Of a stretch of DNA of 64,000 nt, positions 9,015-37,810 are shown piece after piece (the stretch's first letter is position 1; the number at the start of each line of letters is the position of its first letter). Origin of the DNA: Escherichia coli. GTDB taxonomy: Bacteria; Pseudomonadota; Gammaproteobacteria; Enterobacterales; Enterobacteriaceae. The position numbers and the translations under genes were made by a program. The stretch lies in NCBI RefSeq assembly GCF_003334305.1, contig NZ_QOWS01000018.1; one strand, given 5' to 3'. The notes under the pieces were generated by a model that was given only the letters and a program-made list of their open reading frames with translations, did no database searches and was not told the origin of the DNA.

Positions 9015-9299
9015 ACAAATTCCTTACTGAAAATACTGCGCTGCACTATACGGGGTTAATAAAATAAAGCCAGCGATATTTAAGACCGCCGGACGGCTAA
9101 AATAAAATTTGCTTAATCTCAATTATCATGCGTTAATAGCTGCGTCGGTTTGAAAGACAGACAGCATACAAAGTAGTTTACTAAAGCAGTTCTCATTATC
9201 AGGCATTATCCCCTTCTTTTGAGTCTCTCTCCTGAACACTAAGTAGTTTCTGTATTAAAGCCCTGTTTGCCGAAAGGCCCAAAATGAAGGAAGTAAAAT

Positions 9300-9916: not shown

Positions 9917-10079
9917 AGAGTTAAAAAAACAAGCCGAAACGGAAATCGCCGACTTTATCGCGCAAAAAATCGCCGAGCTGAACAAGAATACAGGGAAAGA
10001 AGTCTCTGAAATTCGCTTCACCGCACGAGAAAAAATGACCGGGCTTGAAAGTTATGATGTCAAAATCAAAATAATGTGA
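9906..10079 (+). CDS. gnsA: GnsA (secG null-mutant suppressor), 57 aa, GTG start
   Basis: Translation MNIEELKKQAETEIADFIAQKIAELNKNTGKEVSEIRFTAREKMTGLESYDVKIKIM recognised; below the 60-aa track cutoff. Confidence 0.8.
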   Translation: MNIEELKKQAETEIADFIAQKIAELNKNTGKEVSEIRFTAREKMTGLESYDVKIKIM

Positions 10080-25550: not shown

Positions 25551-27194
25551 ATGAAGCTGCTAGTGACATACATCAGGTGGAGTACTAAAGAGCAAGACTC
25601 AGGAGACTCCTTAAGACGACAAACAAACCTCATTGATGCTTTCTACTCTAAGCACAAAAACGATTATTACCTTCTTCCTGCTCACAGATACGTTGATAAG
25701 GGTAAATCTGGTTTTCACCAGCAACATAAGAATCAAGGTTCTGACTTCAGACGTATGTTTGAAAATGTTATGTCTGGGGCTATTCCAGAAGGTTCCCTGA
25801 TTGTTGTAGAGAACTTTGACCGCTTCAGTAGGGCTGATATCGACACAGCTATAGATGATGTCAGGCAGATACTGAGGAAGGGAGTCTCTATACTGACTCT
25901 GGGAGATGGTGAACTCTACGACAAGTCAGCATTAACAGACCCTGTGAAGCTGATTAAGCACATCATCATAGCTGAGCGAGCACATCAGGAATCTCTTGTT
26001 AAACAAAAGCGTATAGCTCAGGTCTGGAACCATAAAACACAGCTTGCAAGAGAACTTAAGAAGCCTATGGGTAAGCAAGCCCCCGGATGGTTAGAGCTAT
26101 CAGAAGACGGTTCACACTACATCGTTGATGAAGATAAAGCGTCACTGGTGAATATCATCTATGACAAGCGTCTTTCTGGTATGTCGATGTTTGCTATCTG
26201 CAAATGGCTAAACGAACAAGGTTACCCGACCATTAATCAGCGTAAGGTCAGAATATCCAAGACTAAGAAACCGGATGGTAACTGGTCAGCTTTAAGCGTT
26301 AAACACATCCTGACTTCACGAAGTGTATTAGGTTACCTTCCCGCTAAGATTTCTACAGAAGACCGTAAAACAGTGTTACGTGAAGAAATTGAAGGGTTCT
26401 ATCCTCAGATTGTCACAGATTCTAAGTTTTACGCTGTACAGCAACTGTTAGAGGAAACAGGGAAGGGGAAAACATCCAGCGGTGACCACTGGTTATACGT
26501 GAACATACTGAAGGGGCTTATCCGTTGTAAGTGTGGGCTTGTAATGACTCCTACAGGGATACGTAAACCCGTTTATCAAGGTACTTACCGTTGCAATGGT
26601 AATAAGGAGTCCCGTTGTAGCTACGGTACAGTGTCCAGAAAGTTACTTGATACACAGCTTTGTAGTCGTCTGTTTAGCAAACTGTCACAGCTACACGATG
26701 AAGCTACCGATACAGCTAAATTAGATGAACTACAAAGAAGATTAAACACCGTTGATGGTGAACTGGAAAAACTCACTGAGACGCTGATACAGCTTCCTAA
26801 CATCACTCAGATTCAAGAAGCACTACGGGTTAAACAGGAAGAAAAAGATGAACTGATAGTTCAGTTATCACGAGAAAAGGCGAGGGTAAAATCTGTATCA
26901 AGCTTGGATTTAAGCGGTCTTGATATGGAGTCTGTAGAGGGGAGAACTGAAGCCCAGATTATCATTAAGCGTCTGGTGAAAGAGATTGTTGTTTCTGGTA
27001 ATGAAAAGCTGGTGGATATATATCTTCACAATGGAAATATGATTCGTGGTTTCCCTCTTGATGGTAAAGATGACCACACCTTAACGCTTGAAGAAGCAAC
27101 CGATGAGATGCAGTCACTAGATGATATGCTTATTTTTGGTGAACCAGTAACAAGGATTTATCCTGCTGGTGATATGGAAGAGGTGGACGCTTAG
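25551..27194 (+). CDS. Large serine recombinase (integrase candidate)
   Basis: 547 aa; N-terminal resolvase-type catalytic motif YIRWSTKEQ (catalytic Ser), Cys-rich zinc-ribbon region (CKCG...CNGNKESRC) and coiled-coil segment typical of large serine recombinases; gene abuts the junction. Confidence 0.85.
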
Positions 27195-27979
27195 TATTTT
27201 TTATTAGGGTTCACTGAGTACTTTTTAAGCTTTGAAGCTACTCGACCAGCGTTACTATTAGCATTGGTGACGTTGGTTTTTTCAGCTTCTGTTAAGTCTG
27301 AATAGTCCAGCTTCCAAGCCTTATTACACTTAATCTGAGCATCGAGAATATCATTTCTGATAGCTGGAGCGTAACCGGATACATCGCTAATACTCATTAG
27401 CTCTTTGCACGATAGCATAGGCGCGTTATTGCGTTCAGTGGTCACGTTACCTGCATTCTTCTTACTGGTCACACCACCATCATTCGTAGTCGCGGCTTTT
27501 CCAGTTGCAGCCGAGATATCAGTCTGCCCCACAACAGCTTTGAAGTTAATTTCCTGAAAAGTTAGTTGGATTCTTAATCCGTTTGAAATTCCAACATCTT
27601 TAGAGGCTTTAAAACTTGTGATAATGGAATCATCAATTTTAATTCCGTCTTTACAGATGACAGAAATAATCTGCTTCTGGTCACGCCAGTTTTCCAGAGT
27701 GTCAATGAAGTTCTCTACTAATTGACCCTGACGAGTTAATAGTAAGCTTCCTTCATAACCAACTACAACGACACCACTGATAGTGATTGTTCTGGGTGCT
27801 CTTTGAACATTATCTGTGACGGTTTGCCCTGATTGCATGTTCTGTGTAGTCACCTGCATAGGGCTATCAAATTCCATATTTTCAGTTGCTGATAAGGTTA
27901 AGAAGGCATCTACATTATCTCTTAAGTGGAAGTAAACGCCATCTTTGCCACTGTAGCGGATTTGATTGCTAAAAATCAT
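27191..27979 (-). CDS. Hypothetical protein, possibly distal-tail (Dit)-like phage tail component
   Basis: Follows the tape-measure-like gene in the canonical order; start taken at the second Met (MIFSNQ), which has an AAGGAG RBS; homology not verified. Confidence 0.35.
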
Positions 27980-28059
27980 TAAATTCTCCTTTGATTTCAA
28001 AGGCTTAGTGTATTTTAATCATTTTTAACCAAGCCTTTGATATATAAGTATTTTCTCTG

Positions 28060-28128
28060 TTAAGCGTGAGCTACGTAAATTCTATTTTTCAGTGCGGGTA
28101 TTAACTTTGCTTTATTCACGTAGAACAC
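28060..28128. repeat. Direct repeat copy A (69 bp, internal dyad GCTACGT...ACGTAGC) upstream of the Dit-like gene
   Basis: ttaagcgtgagctacgtaaattctatttttcagtgcgggtattaac... about 88 percent identical to copy B. Confidence 0.75.
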
Positions 28129-28135
28129 CGTTAAA

Positions 28136-30304
28136 TCAATCATCTTCTGGGAATGATGAACTTAATAACGTAGCTTCTGCATATTGGTCGTAGATATTAC
28201 TGCTAAAGGTCATAAAGCTGGTTTCATCTGGTTTAATGGCAACTTCACCACCAAGTGAAACTTTCACAGGCTCCTGAATACGCTTACTTAAAGCAGAGAT
28301 TTCATCCCTCAGACCCTGAATATCTGCACTCGTTAATGCTGAATCTTGCTTAATGTTGTTTAATTCTGGATGATTGAATCTTGCAATATTCATTGTGGCA
28401 TTGTTAAACAATTCACCCATTGAACTAAAAATTCTACTCCATCCTTCGTTAATCACATTCGGTTTATTAGGGTCACCAGAATACACAGGATTAAAGTCAC
28501 TACCCACACCTACCCCAGATGGATGCATATTAGCGTTTTTGACTACTTCCTGATTCATAAAATCCAGTGCTTTCTTCAATGCATATAAACCAAGAGTGAC
28601 ACCTCTGATTTGTGGAATCATTGAAGCTAATGCTAACGCTGTTTCATAACCGTCATCAGCATAACCAATTGCAAGAGCACTACCTACACCACCAGCTACA
28701 CCTTTCAGTTTTCCACCACCTTTACCAGTAGCTACCTGACCAGCCACCTGATTAGCTCTTGTACCTAACGTTGTGATTGCTCTTGTCAGGTTCATAACCC
28801 CTGTAGTAGCACTGAATAGTGTCTTTGCAGATAACGCTATAGCAAGACCTTTGACGAAGTTGATAAATCCATCACCGACTTCATCAAGTAGCTTTCGCTT
28901 AGTGTCATCAAGGCTGTAATAGGTCTTCTTAATCTGTAGAATCCAGCCTTCAAGGTGATTGTTAAAGATACGGATGTCATCTACACCAGCTTTAAGCATG
29001 TCGATAAGTCCACCGATAGCATCACCAGCGATAGAAGAACTCATACCCATTTCACTAAGCAGGTTACTCAGGCTGGATAAGAAGCCATTTAGCTCATCCT
29101 GTGAACCTGAGAAGATTTTCACCATCGTATCATCCCAGTTGTTAGCCAGTTTCCCTAAAGCTGTCTGAGTGCTCTTAGCGACTTCAGCCCAGCCACCCGC
29201 TTTATCAATCATCAAGCCCATCTGTTTAGCGACTTTAGGGAGAGTATCACTACTTAAAATCTTCCCGTCTTTCATCGCTTTATCAAGCTCTGTAGCAGTC
29301 ATACCCAGTGCTTCAGCGAATAGCTTAAATGCACCAGCCATACGGTCACCTAACTGACCACGAAGCTCTTCAGCCTGAATCTTGCCCTTGCTCGCCATCT
29401 GCTCAAATGCTTTCAAAATGCCGTTTAGCTCATCGTTAGAAAGCCCCATTAAGCGACTCATAGCCGTTGCATTACCAAATAGCTCCTGTGTCTGTTCCTG
29501 TGACATAGAACCCTGAGCACCTGCTGCAAACTTAGCGTAGCTTGATAGCCCTTCAGAGATATTAAGACCTGTCTTGTCTGCTAAATTTCGAATAAATACC
29601 TCAGCTTCAGATGCTTTATCACCAAGTACAAACTTAGCGGCTCTCTGTGCGGAATCTCGTTTAAGACCTGCATTCATGATGGCCTTGTAAGCGTTAAGAG
29701 CACCCATCACAGAGTAAAATGCACCAGATAACTTGATTGCATTGCTTGCAAGATTATTAAATGCGTCGCTTGTATTGTTAATGCTGGTGGATGTATGACC
29801 TTTAGCTTTAGCAATTGCTTCTCTGACTGAAGCATTTAACTGAGTCAGCTTCTCATTGAATTTTGAAGAATCCATTGACCCAGCTTTAGCAGATAGCCCG
29901 TAAAACTGAGATTTGATGTATTTCTGCAAAATAGGGTCAAAGCCTTTTAGCTTAGACATATTAGCTGAGTAAGCCGCTGTGATTGCTCTGTTGCCGCTAA
30001 TTCGTGGCTGTCTTGGTTGTCTAAGTGGCTTTAAAGTGTCATCAATTTCCGTTTTAATCTTAAACGCTCTAGTGTTTTTAAGACGCTGCTCAATCTTGGA
30101 AACAGTTTTATCGACATTCTTTTCCATTAGTTTGAGAGAATCATTTAAAGGCGTAGGGTTAACTCTGAATGCCTTATTTAGTCGTTTCTCAATTCTTGAT
30201 GCGATTTGCATCGTTTGTTTCTCGGCTTTTTCCAAGCCTTTTAAAACTTTCTGAGAGCTAAAACTTAGCTCAATCAAAAAATCATCAACTTTAAATTGTG
30301 CCAT
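28136..30304 (-). CDS. Tape-measure-like protein (phage tail length tape measure family candidate)
   Basis: 722 aa; coiled-coil N-terminus, central region resembling the tape-measure core (...AEELRGQLGDRMAGAFKLFAEALGMTATELDKAMKDG...), Gly-rich hydrophobic segments. Confidence 0.55.
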   Translation of the reverse strand: MAQFKVDDFLIELSFSSQKVLKGLEKAEKQTMQIASRIEKRLNKAFRVNPTPLNDSLKLMEKNVDKTVSKIEQRLKNTRAFKIKTEIDDTLKPLRQPRQPRISGNRAITAAYSANMSKLKGFDPILQKYIKSQFYGLSAKAGSMDSSKFNEKLTQLNASVREAIAKAKGHTSTSINNTSDAFNNLASNAIKLSGAFYSVMGALNAYKAIMNAGLKRDSAQRAAKFVLGDKASEAEVFIRNLADKTGLNISEGLSSYAKFAAGAQGSMSQEQTQELFGNATAMSRLMGLSNDELNGILKAFEQMASKGKIQAEELRGQLGDRMAGAFKLFAEALGMTATELDKAMKDGKILSSDTLPKVAKQMGLMIDKAGGWAEVAKSTQTALGKLANNWDDTMVKIFSGSQDELNGFLSSLSNLLSEMGMSSSIAGDAIGGLIDMLKAGVDDIRIFNNHLEGWILQIKKTYYSLDDTKRKLLDEVGDGFINFVKGLAIALSAKTLFSATTGVMNLTRAITTLGTRANQVAGQVATGKGGGKLKGVAGGVGSALAIGYADDGYETALALASMIPQIRGVTLGLYALKKALDFMNQEVVKNANMHPSGVGVGSDFNPVYSGDPNKPNVINEGWSRIFSSMGELFNNATMNIARFNHPELNNIKQDSALTSADIQGLRDEISALSKRIQEPVKVSLGGEVAIKPDETSFMTFSSNIYDQYAEATLLSSSFPEDD

Positions 30305-30322
30305 TGTTCATATTTCACCTCT

Positions 30323-30390
30323 TTAAGCGTGAGCTACGTAAATTCTATTTTTCAGTGTGGGTATTAGCTTTACAGATTTCACGTAGCACA
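30323..30390. repeat. Direct repeat copy B upstream of the tape-measure-like gene
   Basis: ttaagcgtgagctacgtaaattctatttttcagtgtgggtattagc...cacgtagcacac. Confidence 0.75.
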
Positions 30391-30505
30391 CATAGGATTC
30401 GATAGAAGACTATCTCATATACAAAAAAGGAGAGTTACCGATGTCACTCGATAATCTCTCCCGTAGATTTTTACCCAACCAATTCTATTAGAAGCTAATC
30501 TCAAA

Positions 30506-30721
30506 TTAATGGTAAACGTAAGAATACATCCCATCATCACCTAAAATCTGTGCGTCACATGGTAATTTATCTAAGCACCATGAAGGAATCTTACGTACCT
30601 TTGGTTTATGTGAGGTGATAACTTGATGCTGATTTTTAATTCGTAGCTTTGGTTTAGTCTGAAGCTTTAAGTTCTCACAAACAGACTTAATAAGTTCATA
30701 GCGTTCTGTTAAATCAATCAT
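30506..30721 (-). CDS. Hypothetical small basic protein
   Basis: 71-aa ORF co-oriented with neighbouring element genes; no recognisable motif. Confidence 0.4.
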   Translation of the reverse strand: MIDLTERYELIKSVCENLKLQTKPKLRIKNQHQVITSHKPKVRKIPSWCLDKLPCDAQILGDDGMYSYVYH

Positions 30722-30744
30722 TCACCACCTCTTTTAATTCATAG

Positions 30745-31455
30745 TTAAAGTGCCTTGCTATATTTCTGAGAAATCTTCACTAACTGCTCAATATCAGCCT
30801 GCATAGCAATCTTCTTCTGCGTTTCATATGCAGAAATAAGCTCTTTCATAGCCTGAAGCTCTCTTGAGAGATACAACTTAACATTTTCAAGTTGCTTGTT
30901 ACGTGATGCCAAGATGTTCTGTCTGGCAAGTTCAGCGAGTTCTTCATCGCTCTTATTAGTCGTGTAAATAAACTGACCAGCACCCCTTGAAGCTTTAACC
31001 ATCTTCACAATTCGATATCCAGCAGGAAGACTACTAATCACGGCTGCGACGTTTTCTTGAAAAGTACCAAAACCATCATTGTCTTCGTATGTGAAGTAAA
31101 CATACGGCTTCTGTGACAATTCATCCTGAATCTCAAATTCTGACGGCTCAATAGCTGATTGCATCAGGGTAACTTTACTGTAAGCATCATCTAGTTTAAT
31201 ACGCTGTGCTTTTAGCAGTGGGTAATATTCACGCTCAAGCTCAAGTAATGCTTCAGTTTTGCATACATCAGGCATCTCTTGAGGCTCAGGAGACACAAAG
31301 ATGATTTCCTTTGGTGACATTCGGATTTCTTGCTCAAGCTTAATTCTTTCATCGTGTTCTTTACGCTGAATAGCGATAGCTGGATGTTCAGTCTGTGGCG
31401 ACCAGTCACCGAAGCTATCAATCACTTTGCCATTAATGTAAATATCATTTGTCAT
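30745..31455 (-). CDS. Hypothetical protein with C-terminal coiled coil
   Basis: 236-aa ORF with a good RBS (aagagga); no recognisable domain. Confidence 0.5.
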   Translation of the reverse strand: MTNDIYINGKVIDSFGDWSPQTEHPAIAIQRKEHDERIKLEQEIRMSPKEIIFVSPEPQEMPDVCKTEALLELEREYYPLLKAQRIKLDDAYSKVTLMQSAIEPSEFEIQDELSQKPYVYFTYEDNDGFGTFQENVAAVISSLPAGYRIVKMVKASRGAGQFIYTTNKSDEELAELARQNILASRNKQLENVKLYLSRELQAMKELISAYETQKKIAMQADIEQLVKISQKYSKAL

Positions 31456-31933
31456 TGTTTTTTCCTCTTCTAAGCTAAAGTATTTCAGTTTTTAAAAAGC
31501 ACACCTGACAGCCTATCTAAACTTAGAAGAGACTTAAAAGGCGGTTTGCCAAGTATGCTTTTTAAAAGCTGAAAAAGCCCTAGATAACTAAAACGCTATA
31601 AAGGGCTAAGGTGAAGAAATTAAAACATCTAAAGGATTCAATAACGAATGAACAAAGACTTTTCGAGATAGCCTCTCAGGTTGTATAAGAGGCCATGTAG
31701 CGAAAAGCATTGCACCTTTCAGAATGTTCGGTATAGAACATACCTCACCAACTCAGAATATCCATCCATCGGATTATTGAAATAAATAAGAGAGAAATTC
31801 TCTCTATAATTAAAATTATGTCATGCTTAAGGTTATTTGTCAACAGCTTTTTAACAGATTGGTAACATTTATACTTTAATAGATGCACCTGCAATCATAC
31901 CAATCAACACAAAACAGAGAATCACCAATTCCA

Positions 31934-32257
31934 TTAATGCACCACCTTCGAATCCGTAACCAGAATATTATCGCTGTACAAAATTGCTATAGCCGCCTTG
32001 AGATATTTTTCAGGGCTAACGCTGTATTTGTTCGTTTGCTCGACAACCAATCTTTTCATGTTGCTGTCTTTAATTGGTAGCATCATTCGAGGCTCGTTAA
32101 ACTCCACCGACTGAATAAAGTCAGAGATGCTTTCCGCATTATCAGTCATTAACTCTAACAACTTATCAAAGTCAATGCTAACACCTACATCAGTGAAAGC
32201 CTGAATCATCATGGCGGTGTCGGTATCAATAAAAATCTGTAATTCGTAATTGTTCAT
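31934..32257 (-). CDS. Hypothetical acidic protein
   Basis: Start taken at the ATG (MNNYELQIF) preceded by AAGGAG; the track ORF begins at an upstream TTG. Confidence 0.45.
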   Translation of the reverse strand: MNNYELQIFIDTDTAMMIQAFTDVGVSIDFDKLLELMTDNAESISDFIQSVEFNEPRMMLPIKDSNMKRLVVEQTNKYSVSPEKYLKAAIAILYSDNILVTDSKVVH

Positions 32258-32412
32258 TTTTAAAATCTCCTTTTTACCAGACCTCCTCAATCGCTCTGTA
32301 ACGAGCTAAACAGTCTTTTTCAGGGGTAGCCTGTACAGTGGTATTACCCACCCTAAAATAAGATAGTTTTTTGCGTCAGAATGCGATTGAGAGCGTCTGA
32401 GAAGCTGTTTTT

Positions 32413-32700
32413 CTAATTTCTCTTAAAGTCTCGGACTTGCATAAGATTTTTTGGTCTGGTATCGGCTCTGTTACCATTTCGATGGATAATTTGCTTGTTG
32501 GATTGATAGCCATGATAAAGAAACCAGACAACATATTTCACGTAGAAAGTATATCGGCCTATATTAAATGTTTTGTTGCCGTAGTCGTCGGTGTTTATCG
32601 TGACTGACTCTCCATCAGACCAGCACAGGGAATCACTGGATTCATCATAGATAAGGTGTTCTGCAAAATATCTTCTAACATCTTCATTCCAAGGTTTCAT
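32413..32700 (-). CDS. HNH endonuclease-like protein
   Basis: 95 aa; C-terminal IIHRNGNRADTRPKNL resembles the HNH core (I-H-x-N/D-G-N-x-x-D-N-R-x-x-N-L) of phage HNH nucleases. Confidence 0.5.
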   Translation of the reverse strand: MKPWNEDVRRYFAEHLIYDESSDSLCWSDGESVTINTDDYGNKTFNIGRYTFYVKYVVWFLYHGYQSNKQIIHRNGNRADTRPKNLMQVRDFKRN

Positions 32701-32912
32701 AAAACCTCCTCACCCCAATAACCTAATTCAATCTTGTGACGCTCAAACCATTCCGGTTTAACTGCTGTTTTCAGTACTTCATTTGGGCCAATGGCTTTAA
32801 TGAAAATATCTTTTGAGTTATGGATGTCACCGAATCCGTTTCCTTCAATCAGGAGGTCGGAGATGTAGCGAATCATTTTATCCGTGTGGTATTCAAAGGT
32901 AACGCATAGCAT
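32697..32912 (-). CDS. Hypothetical protein
   Basis: 71-aa ORF with start/stop overlap to both neighbours (operon-like coupling). Confidence 0.4.
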   Translation of the reverse strand: MLCVTFEYHTDKMIRYISDLLIEGNGFGDIHNSKDIFIKAIGPNEVLKTAVKPEWFERHKIELGYWGEEVL

Positions 32913-33193
32913 TAAACCTCCAGAGACAGCTTGTGAATCTTAAGACTCAATAGACGGGCAATATCAATTTTAAAGCCGTTAAGTCCCTTCAAAGTATCTA
33001 AAGCGTCCTGAGTAATTCGGATGTGTTTACGACCTTTAGAGACTGGATATTTAAGTAAATCCGACTCAGTAACCTCTTTAGCAATTGCAAGCTGCATAAC
33101 AGTCTGATGAGGTAAGTTAGTAGCTCGTTTAATTCTGGCAAGCTCGTTAAAAGCTTCCTCTGAAATGCGGGTTAAAGTGTGTTTGTTTTTCAT
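32912..33193 (-). CDS. Putative ribbon-helix-helix DNA-binding protein
   Basis: N-terminal HTLTRISEEAFNELARIKRATNL pattern (beta-strand then helix) typical of Arc/MetJ/CopG-type regulators. Confidence 0.4.
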   Translation of the reverse strand: MKNKHTLTRISEEAFNELARIKRATNLPHQTVMQLAIAKEVTESDLLKYPVSKGRKHIRITQDALDTLKGLNGFKIDIARLLSLKIHKLSLEV

Positions 33194-33194
33194 T

Positions 33195-33749
33195 TTAAAA
33201 TTCCTCTGTAACTAAATACGGGTCAAATTCAAAGTCTGGTTCACTGGTTGTAAGGCTGATATTTCCAACTTCCGCATGATGATTAATTGTCTCAATAACT
33301 TTCATGCAAATAGTGGCTAAGTTAGCGCAATATTTATCACTTGGTAATTCGTAGCTAAGTCTGGTTGCTTGTCTTTGAAGATGGCTCGTCACTGTGCTTG
33401 AACTAATCTCATCAAGACTTCGCAGTAAATAAAAAACCTTCCGGTGATAATTATCTCTTCCAAGACTGCGACAAGTACCGATAATTACATCTTCAATTCG
33501 TGGCGGTAATTGCTCGTAAGAATCAAAGCCCATCAAGAAAGTTTTTAAAGTATTCTCTTTTTCTTTGCGTGCTGGCATAAATCTGTCTCGTGGCGTAATG
33601 CTACGAATGACCGCTTCAATGTTCTTACGTTCGGATTTGCTAAAGGTTGGGACTTCGTAGCTGGTGGGGGTGTCTGTGTGGCTGTAACCGTTGTGTCTGT
33701 TGCGTTCTCTTGATGCCTGAAGCATCGCTCTAAATTCTCTGTCGTTCAT
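33195..33749 (-). CDS. Hypothetical protein (first gene of the leftward operon)
   Basis: 184-aa ORF with no recognisable domain. Confidence 0.45.
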   Translation of the reverse strand: MNDREFRAMLQASRERNRHNGYSHTDTPTSYEVPTFSKSERKNIEAVIRSITPRDRFMPARKEKENTLKTFLMGFDSYEQLPPRIEDVIIGTCRSLGRDNYHRKVFYLLRSLDEISSSTVTSHLQRQATRLSYELPSDKYCANLATICMKVIETINHHAEVGNISLTTSEPDFEFDPYLVTEEF

Positions 33750-33850
33750 TCATAAGCTAGTCCTTATAATTGTTAATTCTCTGTTAACTTATATATACAA
33801 TACTAGCATTTTCAAAGACTAATGTCAAGCATTTTTTAACATTTCATTAA

Positions 33851-33866
33851 CATCTGTGGTATAATG
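33851..33866 (+). promoter_or_regulatory. Candidate extended -10 promoter (TGgTATAAT), rightward
   Basis: ctgTGgTATAATgg in the divergent region between the 184-aa gene and the small membrane ORF. Confidence 0.45.
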
Positions 33867-33992
33867 GTTCTATGGGGAGAGTAAAATATAAAGGCGTGGC
33901 TATGAGGTTTATTCGATAGGGGTTGGTACAAGCCCAACCAACCGAATCAACTATGTATGTCACATGGTATTGCATTGCACACAGGAAATTTA

Positions 33993-34169
33993 ATGGTAAA
34001 TCTCCCTCCTGAACTGGGGTCACCTGATGTATGGGCTGGTGGAGGTATCGGGCTGATTGCAGGTCTGTTACTCCGCTACGTCCTTGTCAGAGTGCTTGTT
34101 GTGTTCCGATTGTTCGGTCGTACATGGACGCTTGACCTTAAGGATAATGAGCACACAGAACCCCGTTAA
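33993..34169 (+). CDS. Small single-pass membrane protein (58 aa from the RBS-preceded ATG)
   Basis: Hydrophobic stretch GGGIGLIAGLLLRYVLVRVLVVF; AGGAAA RBS before the MVNLPPEL start. Confidence 0.35.
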   Translation: MVNLPPELGSPDVWAGGGIGLIAGLLLRYVLVRVLVVFRLFGRTWTLDLKDNEHTEPR

Positions 34170-34211
34170 GCTCCCTTCAAATCCCCCTGTACGAGATGGC
34201 ATAGGGGTGTC

Positions 34212-34250
34212 TTTAGCATTTTGTGCTATCTATTAAAAAATAACTTGACA
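34212..34250. promoter_or_regulatory. Operator-like dyad TAGCA-N5-TGCTA followed by ACTTGACA (module 1)
   Basis: tttagcattttgtgcta ... acttgacagaa. Confidence 0.45.
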
Positions 34251-34289
34251 GAACCGGAAAGCTGTATCTATCAGGTATTCACCTCTCTG

Positions 34290-34460
34290 ACAGTAACTTC
34301 TAAAAGTTCTTATTTTTCAATGAGTTGTAATCACCCATATATAGAGAACTGACAAGTCTCTTCACAATTAACTCTGTAACCTTAACAGTGATTTCTAAAA
34401 ATGCTTATTTTTCAATAAGTTGTAATTAGCCATATATAGAGAACTGACAAGTCTCTTCAC
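34290..34460. repeat. Two tandem copies of a 76-bp direct repeat (period 95 bp) in ORF-free DNA
   Basis: acagtaacttctaaaagttcttatttttcaatgagttgtaatcacccatatatagagaactgacaagtctcttcac versus the second copy, about 88 percent identical. Confidence 0.8.
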
Positions 34461-34777
34461 GGAGAACTTCCTGGACTCACTAAGATACAAGGCGATAACC
34501 CCAGAAAGGGAGAGCCACCTTCTAATTGGTATTGTTATGAGGATGCTTCATCCGAATCATCTACCAATCCCTAAACCGACTTCTTAAACAATCTTTACAG
34601 ACCCCGTTCACCAGTCTCAATATTTTTATTTCTCGCTCTTCGTTTGTTGCTCGTTTCTATTATTGAGGGGGTTTGAAAAACCTCTGTAAAATAACCCTTC
34701 CAGTAAAAAGCGAATAACCCCAGAGAGGGGGAATCGCCTCTTTAACATTCTCATAATCAGTGCTCTATATGAGAATT

Positions 34778-35446
34778 TCAGCCCAACCTTTGAACAATCT
34801 TGTAAGTGGTGCTTAGAGGCATTCTTAGCGATTCTGCGATGCTCTTGACGGATTGCCCTTGGCCATGCAGTTTAATCAGCCTGTCAAGCGTCTGTGCATC
34901 GTGTATATGAGGTCTTCCACGTAAACCACCCCTGTTAACCACGGCAAGTAAAAGCATTGTGTCGCCACAATAGATTGTTTGTGTAACTTCAACCTTCGGT
35001 TTACGGGGTGTGTTCCTGTATATCAAAACGCAACTTGCAAACGGTGAACGCACTACAACACCTTTCTTCCCTGCTGGTGGAAGGTATTTGACTGCTCGGT
35101 GTAACGTTCGAATCTCATGCAGAAAGGGGTTTGTATATACACACCGAAGCCAGTAAGTTGTCTTTGACCTGTGCGGAACCAGACATACACACACATCAGC
35201 TTCATGGGATTTTAGGAGGAACCTTTCAGCCATGCTAAACGGCGGGTTAACGAAGACCCGTTCACCAACCCATGATTGATTGTGAATATCATCGGTGAAC
35301 CGTGGCAACAATGCGTCATGCTCAGTTGCAGCACCATCCATCGAAAAACCAAATTCACGGTGTAGGTTACGAAATAAACGATACGGTGTACGCCAGTCAT
35401 CAGAACCACCATGATAACGACCGACATTGATTATTGGATGTGACAC
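34778..35446 (-). CDS. Dam-family (phage-type) DNA N6-adenine methyltransferase with a C-terminal HTH extension; GTG start
   Basis: N-terminal DWRTP and catalytic NPPF motifs of the phage Dam family; C-terminal about 45 aa (GRPHIHDAQTLDRLIKLHGQGQSVKSIAESLRMPLSTTYKIVQRLG) resemble the GRP-linker plus HTH of resolvase/invertase proteins. Confidence 0.7.
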   Translation of the reverse strand: MSHPIINVGRYHGGSDDWRTPYRLFRNLHREFGFSMDGAATEHDALLPRFTDDIHNQSWVGERVFVNPPFSMAERFLLKSHEADVCVCLVPHRSKTTYWLRCVYTNPFLHEIRTLHRAVKYLPPAGKKGVVVRSPFASCVLIYRNTPRKPKVEVTQTIYCGDTMLLLAVVNRGGLRGRPHIHDAQTLDRLIKLHGQGQSVKSIAESLRMPLSTTYKIVQRLG

Positions 35447-35485
35447 AAGCGAAGCGCCCCTCTTAGTATATTTCTTAATCGTCTC

Positions 35486-35546
35486 TTTAGCATTTAGTGC
35501 TTTTTGTTAAGTTTAGCACTTTTTGCTAAAGACAAAACACTTGACA
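35486..35546. promoter_or_regulatory. Operator-like dyads (TTTAGCA-N6-TGCTAAA and a second half-degenerate copy) followed by ACTTGACA (module 2), upstream of the methyltransferase gene
   Basis: tttagcatttagtgct and tttagcactttttgctaaa, then acttgacaaaa. Confidence 0.5.
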
Positions 35547-36020
35547 AAATGGTAAGATTGTTCACATGACCTTACTTAACAGATTCTTAAGAGCTTTGAA
35601 ACGAACTGTTTAACAAGGTCACTACCTCTGGTCTTATCGTTCCCTCTCTTCTTGGTAGTTCTGTTAAGTATCTTTTCAGGTATCTCTTACAGTCACTGTT
35701 AAGATAGAACCTACCTTCGGTTTCATGGTTCTCTTCCTCCCGTTAAATATCCCTTCACAGTCAGACTAAATAACACCTCTGTAGTTTCTTGGTAGAATCT
35801 TTCAAGGTAACTTAACTCTGAGTTTATGAAGTTGACCTTAGTCAATGTTTGTGAAGGTGTTACAGAGCATGTTCTCTAGGTCTGTGTAGCTCACTAAGCG
35901 AGAGAGGGGATATGTGACCATAGGGGAACCCCTCCTGTTAAAAGTTTCTTGATGTTATCATCACAATATGTATAATCACCAACTGTACAGACACCTTAAC
36001 GGTTTCTCTACACCTCACTA

Positions 36021-36089
36021 TGGCTAGGTAGGGTATGGTTTAGCTTGGTACGGCTAGGTTAGGTCTGGTTTGGTTAGGTATGGGTGGAT
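36021..36089. repeat. Degenerate G/T-rich short tandem repeat (GGYTAGGT-like units)
   Basis: tggctaggtagggtatggtttagcttggtacggctaggttaggtctggtttggttaggtatgggtgg. Confidence 0.6.
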
Positions 36090-36120
36090 TGTCGTAGCCA
36101 CGTTAAAAATCGACTTATAG

Positions 36121-36145
36121 GGACTCTTTCGGGAGTCCTTTTTAG
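36121..36145 (+). terminator. Intrinsic terminator, plus orientation, with no upstream plus-strand ORF
   Basis: ggactc-tttcgg-gagtcc stem-loop followed by ttttt. Confidence 0.6.
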
Positions 36146-36347
36146 TTTGTATAAAATCTGTACAGGAGTTATCAGGCTTCTAAAATTTTTATAAAAAATA
36201 ATCAGACCTCTTCTAAGCCTCTTCAACCAAATCTTTCGAAAATATCTGACAGATGTCTGTAGCTGCTAAGTACCCGTCACACCAGCTATGTGACCCCCTT
36301 GGCAAAAAAGCCAAATATCAGCTACATCCATGTAACTATTCAGTAAC

Positions 36348-36899
36348 TTATTTAGCAAGTCTGTAATAAGTTGCTCTAGAGATTCCTAACTCTTCCTGAA
36401 TCTGCAACCTCGTCTTACCTTGTGAAATAAGCGTCTGTACAGCCTCTGAAGAAGCCTTTACAGGCCTCCCCATATGTACCCCTTCAGCTTTAGCACGTTC
36501 AATACCAGCCTTTCTACGCTCTGCTATCAAGCTTCTTTCAAGCTGTGCCAACGTTGACATAATGCCTAACATTGCTTCACCCATAGCGCTTGATAAGTCA
36601 AACCCTTCTCTAAGGCTGATAACTGTCACACCTTTAGCCTGTAGCGCTTTAACCGTTGATAACACATCAATTGTGTCACGTCCAAGACGGTCTACAGCTA
36701 CCACAACTACGGTGTCACCTTCTCGTGCATAAGCTAACAAACTACTGAAACCGTTTCTTAAAGAAGCTTTGACAGAACCACTGACAGCTTCATCAGTGAA
36801 CCATTTAGCAATGTTGTACCCTGCCTCTTCAATTTGCATTTGCTGGTTAGTGATGGATTGGTCATCTGTACTCACCCTGCAATATCCAAGTATCGCCAT
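36348..36899 (-). CDS. Small serine recombinase (resolvase/DNA-invertase family)
   Basis: 183 aa; N-terminal catalytic motif GYCRVSTDDQ, resolvase core, C-terminal GRP linker plus HTH. Confidence 0.85.
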   Translation of the reverse strand: MAILGYCRVSTDDQSITNQQMQIEEAGYNIAKWFTDEAVSGSVKASLRNGFSSLLAYAREGDTVVVVAVDRLGRDTIDVLSTVKALQAKGVTVISLREGFDLSSAMGEAMLGIMSTLAQLERSLIAERRKAGIERAKAEGVHMGRPVKASSEAVQTLISQGKTRLQIQEELGISRATYYRLAK

Positions 36900-36912
36900 A
36901 CATCCCCCTTAG

Positions 36913-37040
36913 AAGTCTCAAAAGTTAGTCTCATAAGTTTAGCTGTCTCATAATCCAAAAACAACCTTTTGAGACTACTTGAGGGTGCATTCTACCGTTA
37001 CGTTGAAAGTGTCTCAAAAGGAAGTCCTTTTAAGACTGGT
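36913..37040. promoter_or_regulatory. Iteron-like array of GTCTCAWAAG motifs (at least four direct, two inverted) immediately upstream of the small recombinase gene
   Basis: gtctcaaaag, gtctcataag, gtctcataat, inverted ttttgagact, gtctcaaaag, taagact within about 125 bp. Confidence 0.6.
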
Positions 37041-37416
37041 TATGAAGGAGCTATGAAGATTTTAGGAGGGTAACTATAACCATCACTTTCTAACTTTCAC
37101 GTAGGAAATCGTTAAGTTTCTTGATAGTTACACCATGTGACCAACTATCTATATATCGTTATATAGCCCTGTATATAACACTTTTCTAGGAGTCGAGAGA
37201 GGGACGACTAACACGATACAGTTTACCCTGAAAAGAGACTTCACAGATTCTCTATATATTTCAATAAGTTAGGCTAAAAAGAGACTATACCGATACTGTA
37301 TAGAATCTGTGTAGAATTGCTTAGATACTTGGAAAAATGCCTTTAAATTGAATAGGTACTAACCTGTTTATGTCCTGTTATTAACAGGTAGTTGAATGTA
37401 CGTGTTTAGCTATGTA

Positions 37417-37438
37417 AAAGCACCAGAACTTTAGCCAT
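37417..37438 (-). other. attR core candidate (AAAGCAC) plus the displaced native wrbA start codon and first five codons
   Basis: Minus strand reads ATG GCT AAA GTT CTG GTG C..., the recalled native wrbA 5' end, now separated from the gene body by the element. Confidence 0.6.
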
Positions 37439-37810
37439 TTCTAACCACTCCTCGTGTTATCTCTATTCCGTAGCGATTCGCTACCACTTATTTAAAGATA
37501 AGACGTCCTTTTCAGAGTGCAAATTTCACAACCACTTATTTGATTTATAACAACTTTCACAAGCACGTAATTTTGTCGCAAAATGACACATTTTTATCTC
37601 ATCGCGTTTTTTTAATCATAAGAGCGGCTTATGGATAATTATTGGAGATGATATCTATTCTCGCTAAGAAGCTGTTGCAGGATATTACCAAACGCGGGTC
37701 TGCCCGCGTCAGTTCACTAAGCTTAGTCCCACGTAGCGAAAATATGGCAGCCGCCATACGCCGCGTTAATTCTATGCAATATGATGTCTATACCCAGACG
37801 GAGGTCAGTA

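Follow-up and report, generated by a model that had tools for sequence, protein, structure and literature searches.

A predicted N6-adenine methyltransferase of the phage Dam family fused to a serine-recombinase-type DNA-binding tail in a mobile island of Escherichia coli

The window analysed here, i.e., the whole stretch of 64,000 nucleotides of Escherichia coli DNA, shows 100% identity to the chromosome of E. coli A7 (NZ_CP028767.1). It carries a gene for a protein in which a Dam-family methyltransferase (MTase) domain is followed by a helix-turn-helix (HTH) tail (Table 1), and the RefSeq annotation of E. coli A7 has at identical coordinates a DNA N-6-adenine-methyltransferase, WP_097344000.1. 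The GTG start, which the original prediction had read from the letters alone, is supported by two comparisons: paralogues of the second subtype, described below, have an ATG in the same alignment column, and the GTG is kept by every subtype-1 copy examined.

Table 1. Features of the fusion gene and its surroundings, in positions of the window
Feature	Position	Strand	Remarks
Host island	25551..37700		~12 kb, low-GC, between wrbA and ymdF; right boundary approximate
Large serine recombinase	25551-27194	+	at one island end
Third, partial dyad copy	34208..34228 (pattern 34212-34227)		550 bp downstream of the fusion gene
Presence/absence cassette	34591..35527		~218 bp instead in the gene-less loci L003 and L004
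MTase-HTH fusion CDS	34778..35446	-	222 aa, GTG start, stop 34778-34780; full-length homologues 220-222 aa
Serine-recombinase-type DNA-binding tail, aa 171-222	34781..34936	-	NRGGLRGRP minor-groove arm and three helices
Dam-family (PF05869) N6-adenine MTase domain, aa 1-165	34952..35446	-	DWRTP and NPPF
Catalytic NPPF motif, aa 67-70	35237-35248	-
DWRTP motif, aa 17-21	35384-35398	-
Upstream segment with two alleles	35463..35527		65 bp; window allele carries the perfect and a partial dyad
Partial dyad copy	35486-35501		upstream of the fusion gene
Perfect dyad TTTAGCA-N5-TGCTAAA	35512-35530		upstream of the fusion gene
Small serine recombinase, invertase/resolvase type	36348..36899	-	183 aa; 900 bp upstream of the fusion gene

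The host island has a GC content of ~40%, compared with 52% in its flanks, and is found at the same site in other strains with ~85% nucleotide identity; related islands lie in yecE (a DUF72 gene) and beside yciI. A leftward gene array begins at the end that holds the small recombinase and the MTase gene, the fusion gene being near this end of the island. On the minus strand the array comprises the small serine recombinase, the MTase-HTH gene, several hypothetical genes and a small HNH endonuclease, as well as genes for a 236-aa 'transposase', a tape-measure-like protein and a phrog_3721 protein. Neither Rfam nor tRNA scans showed anything in the island that rose above noise. The fusion protein was classed by PADLOC as an orphan MTase, which is the sole PADLOC result among the island proteins; no restriction-enzyme match adjoins the fusion gene and no partner endonuclease gene is adjacent to it. 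The single nuclease nearby is a 95-aa HNH protein encoded ~2 kb away, of a type that is common in phages.

The islands form a family (window 25551-37700; loci L002, L003, L005-L007 and L013-L015) whose members are ~12 kb long and low in GC, have a fixed gene order and a large serine recombinase, and occupy three or more chromosomal sites (wrbA-ymdF, yecE and yciI). Their gene content includes a tape-measure-like protein of 722 aa, the phrog_3721 protein, an HNH protein and many unknowns, with no capsid genes, and the layout recalls PLE-type phage satellites. The fusion gene is an accessory cassette of the island, which is integrated by the large serine recombinase. Loci L003 and L004, which have only a short segment in place of the cassette, keep both its flanks, including the 5' leader AGAGGGGCGCTTCGCTTG. 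At 13820-16536 of L004 (E. coli E2855) a lambdoid prophage beside yciI has at its end the small serine recombinase together with the non-coding modules but not the MTase gene, so the modules move between island and prophage backbones.

The N-terminal part of the protein is matched by the Pfam profile Dam (PF05869) over aa 15-144 (E 3.9e-13; model positions 9-145 of 169), as are 11/11 sequences of the fusion clade, and by the DNA methyltransferase family phrog_111 of PHROGs (E 9.5e-25). Against the curated equivalog TIGR01712 (phage_N6A_met) it scores 39.1 bits, below the cut-off of 97.05, with aa 15-82 only being aligned; with a score so far under the cut-off, the enzyme is divergent. The residues conserved throughout the family are all retained, namely W18, T20, P21, F34, D37, A39, A40, W59 and N67-P68-P69-F70. 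In the alignment of 136 family sequences A39 reaches 79% and F/Y at position 70 reaches 97%, while the other signature residues reach 93-100%. Since every family-wide conserved residue is present, the fusion enzyme is expected to be active.

The AlphaFold model, calculated from a deep family alignment (mean pLDDT 89.8, pTM 0.85; with a shallow, E. coli-only alignment the pLDDT was 45), consists of an alpha/beta domain reaching to about aa 172, followed by three helices at aa 184-195, 200-207 and 211-221. Both the model and the fold searches identify the N-terminal domain as a class I SAM-dependent N6-adenine MTase. The closest structural relatives of this body are M.TaqI, M.BseCI, PacII M, type I HsdM, CamA and MmeI, and also PCIF1; in Foldseek PCIF1 (E 6e-4) comes first, with KsgA/Dim1 and PacII next. 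No solved structure with sequence kinship to the catalytic domain or the Dam family was found. Judged by its sequence, the product of 34778-35446 would be an intact orphan N6-adenine MTase of the minimal phage-type Dam family, with predicted activity. The original prediction of such an MTase had been made from the DWRTP and NPPF motifs, and these are joined here by the PF05869 match and by an MTase fold in the structure prediction.

The C-terminal part begins with NRGGLRGRP (aa 171-179, with the GRP arm at aa 177-179), after which the helix-turn-helix follows. In Pfam the resolvase HTH profile HTH_7 (PF02796) covers aa 177-217 (E 6.4e-4), so that Dam and HTH_7 are both matched on one protein; across the fusion clade 7/11 sequences match HTH_7 at E ≤ 1e-3 and 11/11 at E ≤ 0.1, the best at 5.2e-8. 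When the profile of the tail was compared with that of the C-termini of the islands' small serine recombinases, the probability was 95.8% (E 6.7e-9) over 44 columns that include the GRP arm. In structure the tail matches the DNA-binding domains of GcrA, Sin and Tn3 resolvase. The resolvase catalytic domain PF00239 is absent from the Pfam matches of the fusion protein; the MTase occupies its place, and the protein is therefore not a recombinase. A GRP arm with a serine-recombinase HTH, as first read from the letters, is thus corroborated by profile, model and fold matches alike. Searching proteins with the tail alone brought up only E. coli fragments from this family, with no donor recombinase among them.

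The tail might have been a normal part of Dam-family proteins, and three comparisons speak against this. Among 50,697 phage genomes, searched in translation, 157 records matched, all of them aligning within aa 11-165 at no more than 35% identity; the phage homologues end at aa 133-165. Of 1.84 billion representative proteins scanned with HMMER, 2356 matched, and among the best 150 of these 2356 representatives (50%-identity) six near-full-length proteins and one degraded fragment of 162 aa align to about aa 217-221, the remainder (~95%) ending near aa 145-165 and being mostly 140-200 aa long. In the 136-sequence alignment residues past aa 180 occur only in the fusion clade and in four proteins with unrelated extensions. 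By these comparisons the tail is specific to the clade. C-terminal extensions unrelated to the HTH tail are found on other Dam-family members; that of P0222 resembles, by eye, a different DNA-binding tail, and if it truly binds DNA, accretion of DNA-binding domains would be recurrent in the Dam family.

The fusion recurs in a small set of mobile islands of enterobacteria. In the 90%-identity protein collection 528 proteins were found at E ≤ 0.001, the best 120 of which are nearly all 220-222 aa long, with query coverage of 100% and identity of 67-90%. Among complete E. coli genomes the gene is present in 214/5426 (~4%), the ETEC reference strain E24377A being one of its carriers; it is chromosomal in every case, and in 211 of the 214 the query coverage is at least 80%. 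Similar DNA was found on no plasmid and in phages only as a 55-nt non-coding match, and single-protein pattern scans of viral and genome contigs gave no matches. Two subtypes of the gene occur in E. coli, at nucleotide identities of at least 90% and of ~70%, respectively, and the same architecture is found with 41-55% identity in Franconibacter helveticus, Erwinia typographi, Pluralibacter gergoviae, Raoultella planticola and metagenomes. Over both parts of the protein dN/dS is 0.17-0.41, with dS > 1 between the subtypes. The between-subtype values are 0.19-0.27 for the MTase part and 0.17-0.22 for the tail, and the tail stays at 0.17-0.36 where dS > 1; both parts are under purifying selection, and the tail is accordingly functional. 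Within the tail G173, G177 and D188 are invariant down to 41% identity, and P179, G197, T213 and position 216 (mostly R, K in this protein) are nearly so. The cross-genus architecture, the low dN/dS and the conserved tail residues indicate that both halves are old and selected as one protein. The idea, raised at the outset, of a chimera that arose by recent or local recombination is contradicted by the homologues in other Enterobacterales genera and by these dN/dS and dS values. The fusion is already visible in public annotation, where PF05869 and PF02796 are placed automatically on some of its members; the literature searches turned up no account of the fusion, of its specificity or of its island.

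The pattern TTTAGCA-N5-TGCT has four matches in the window against 0.03 expected. The 65-bp segment that contains the two upstream dyads exists as two alleles of equal length that differ sharply, one with and one without the dyads, while the surrounding DNA is conserved, a polymorphism which resembles that of operators or immunity regions. No dyad common to all gene-bearing loci was found; the only candidate, GTCACA-N7-TGTGAC at 36276, is absent in L013-L015, and no DNA motif was found to co-occur with the fusion gene across the loci. This last dyad, or hairpin, lies at 36273-36297 just 3' of the recombinase stop; it is shared by the window, L002 and L005-L007, L004 has it with one mismatch, and L003, like L013-L015, lacks it.

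A small recombinase is a frequent but not obligatory neighbour of the gene. The serine recombinase of the window is also present in L002 and L013; in L005 and L006 its place is taken by a distant serine-recombinase relative that faces the other way, and in Erwinia and Raoultella-like loci a small tyrosine recombinase of 186-205 aa is near the gene. In the window, inverted repeats of 20 nt (36331-36350 / 37113-37132) stand on either side of the recombinase gene and coincide with the breakpoints of homology to other islands. The corresponding bracketed segment of L005 (5448-6345), likewise of L006, holds a different recombinase in reverse, so that the small recombinase is itself a swappable cassette. 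In Erwinia typographi (L011) a perfect 14-bp inverted repeat (9130-9143 / 9936-9949) brackets a 792-bp spacer between a tyrosine recombinase of FimB/FimE size and the MTase-HTH gene; the chance of such a repeat in 1.8 kb is, by a rough estimate, <0.01, and the spacer is a candidate invertible promoter. In Franconibacter helveticus (CP188022.1; L009 7777-13718) the homologue lies 29 bp downstream of genes for flagellin and a FljA-like phase-1 repressor, close to a large serine recombinase, and the locus looks like an excisable flagellar-antigen islet.

How the protein relates to known systems may be considered next. It shares with the phage Dam MTases (PF05869; T1, HP1 and VT-2/933W Dam) the catalytic family with DWxTP, DxAA and NPPF/Y, a small size, carriage by mobile elements and orphan status; unlike it, these are single-domain enzymes of ~140-200 aa that end where the tail of the fusion starts. 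With the serine recombinases (Hin, Sin, Tn3 and gamma-delta resolvase) it shares, in profile and in structure, the GRP arm followed by a three-helix HTH, yet it has no PF00239 domain, the MTase standing in its place. GcrA of Caulobacter, which prefers m6A-marked promoters, is a transcription factor, unlike the fusion, and the resemblance of the DNA-binding domains is a lead only. MTases with a fused HTH are a kind already known, since M.SsoII and M.Ecl18kI carry one and are autoregulatory (PMC3978073, PMC2760811), and ParB-HTH fusions have been discussed as well (PMC4738411). The likeness to M.SsoII and M.Ecl18kI consists in a DNA MTase with a fused HTH and, in the window allele, a dyad upstream. 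Those two methylate C5 of cytosine, carry their HTH at the N-terminus and have both a partner endonuclease and a proven operator, whereas the fusion is of the N6-adenine type and has a C-terminal tail of recombinase type, no endonuclease partner and dyads that are not linked to the gene.

The reading that we favour, tentatively and with slightly less than even confidence, is that the tail serves as a built-in DNA-anchoring and target-selecting module for an MTase that has no target-recognition domain of its own. A complete DNA-binding module of the serine recombinases, GRP arm and three-helix HTH, would have been appended to a catalytic Rossmann domain. The tail would dock on a short sequence through its recognition helix LSTTYKIVQRL and the arm, so that the catalytic domain comes to lie on an adenine at most about one helical turn away, and the sites of methylation would thereby be narrowed or defined. 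The methylation may serve the island, as restriction protection or as epigenetic marking, since the gene is an accessory cassette and heads the main array of a mobile island. M.TaqI, M.BseCI, PacII M, type I HsdM, CamA and MmeI have a separate recognition domain or subunit. A targeting role is favoured because the structural class of the body uses such a separate module, which the Dam family lacks, and also because the appended tail is itself a DNA-binding unit that reads sequence, complete and conserved, in surroundings too variable for a fixed operator. The M.TaqI/HsdM class has a large recognition domain or subunit, compared with a 50-aa HTH as the only extra DNA-binding element of the fusion. 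The Dam enzymes of T1, HP1 and VT-2 are GATC-specific without any tail, so specificity does not strictly require a tail.

One may ask if the tail instead binds an operator of its own gene, TTTAGCA-N5-TGCTAAA, with specificity residing in the catalytic domain alone, as the precedent of HTH-fused MTases that bind operators in their own promoters would suggest (PMC3978073, PMC2760811). The original prediction had offered autoregulation through the dyads. That the dyads exist well above expectation was confirmed; two of them sit 40-85 bp upstream of the start codon, and a perfect dyad in the presumptive promoter of the window allele fits an operator in subtype 1. The proposed regulation fared worse, and we consider it unlikely. 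Among junctions in complete genomes the gene stands next to the dyad allele in 45 and next to the dyad-less allele in 64, i.e., the dyads precede ~40% of subtype-1 genes, and they are absent upstream of the subtype-2 gene in both loci examined (L005 and L006) despite a nearly equal recognition helix (LSTTYKIVQRL here vs LSTSYRIAQRL in subtype 2). Moreover, the dyad-less allele is found both before subtype-1 genes (L013-L015) and in islands without the gene (L003, L004), the downstream dyad-like site is present in gene-less islands as well, and the stretch from the dyads to the start codon yielded no sigma-70-like promoter on the coding strand. These allele counts, the absence from subtype 2 and the persistence without the gene argue that the dyads are not the cognate partner of the protein across its family, and they probably do not serve as its operators. 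More generally, the flanking DNA is variable and the recognition helix conserved, which makes any locus-specific operator unlikely.

Because a recombinase recurs beside the gene, a phase-variable switch was considered, in which the fusion would be an epigenetic partner of recombination that methylates recombinase half-sites and so controls inversion, excision or the switching of expression. The distance of 0.5-0.9 kb between the two genes in most loci, whether the recombinase is of the serine type (E. coli) or the tyrosine type (Erwinia, Raoultella-like), fits this idea, as do the repeats around the recombinase cassette of the window, the bracketed spacer of Erwinia and the position of the Franconibacter gene. 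It is nevertheless quite unlikely in our estimate. Chimeric-junction queries for two repeat pairs in finished assemblies revealed the inverted form in 0/499 genomes carrying the sequences for the junction 35660-35680 / 37227-37247, and in 0/278 for the L005 repeats between the MTase and the divergent recombinase; rare or conditional inversion, or inversion at further repeat pairs, would escape such queries. As to the gene-flanking pair 34208-34228 / 35514-35534, the 71 genomes with at least 80% coverage matched on a single strand, in the arrangement of the window. The fusion gene is present in L014 and L015, where no small recombinase is annotated, the tail is only 28% identical to the DNA-binding domain of the neighbouring recombinase, and HTH_7 sites are not used by tyrosine recombinases. 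A bolder version, in which the MTase replaced the catalytic domain of a recombinase and m6A at a few long asymmetric half-sites would be a switch for recombination, excision or early transcription of the satellite-like island, seems to us rather improbable; in it the tail, which closely resembles the GcrA DNA-binding domain in structure, might even read its own methyl mark. A transcription regulator of the island, with an MTase domain that is inactive or a SAM sensor only, would suit a gene that heads the main array near the integrase end, the usual place of satellite and prophage regulators, and also the low TIGR01712 score. The conserved catalytic and SAM-pocket signature, NPPF included, and a purifying selection as strong on the catalytic part as on the tail leave this very improbable. 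Truncated or split copies, with HTH-only fragments of 42-108 aa, occur in some genomes and might recall a decaying pseudogene fusion or an error of annotation or assembly, but this is scarcely credible: it was effectively refuted by the dN/dS well below 1, the 211/214 copies of near-full length and the architecture conserved across the genera of the clade, and the two-domain model is confident.

Minimal Dam-family MTases are common in phages and their target selection is poorly understood; natural fusion to a well-understood recombinase module of 50 aa offers a simple system for how an added DNA-binding domain reshapes specificity, and could be a template for targeted m6A writers. Carried by ~4% of complete E. 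coli genomes, the gene may account for m6A motifs that have no assigned enzyme. It also marks a family of large-serine-recombinase islands that lack a description in the literature searched. The finding itself is solid and tidy and overturns no expectations.

The non-coding DNA around the MTase gene has further features. Two blocks that flank the gene (34522-34575 and 35610-35648) match Felix O1-like phages at 92-98%, the first of them forming a hairpin ATTGGTA...TACCAAT. Their counterparts in phage EC106 (L008; 2501-2554 and 3146-3184) lie in an unannotated 1.7-kb non-coding region, and they are also found in NBEco004 and NBEco005. These blocks may be regulatory or packaging signals common to island and phage, which would suit a satellite-helper relationship. 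In the non-coding kilobase downstream of the MTase gene there are, moreover, two 76-nt direct repeats (34290-34365 and 34385-34460), 91% identical and spaced 95 nt apart, which are conserved in related islands and each of which opens with a promoter-like site on the plus strand.
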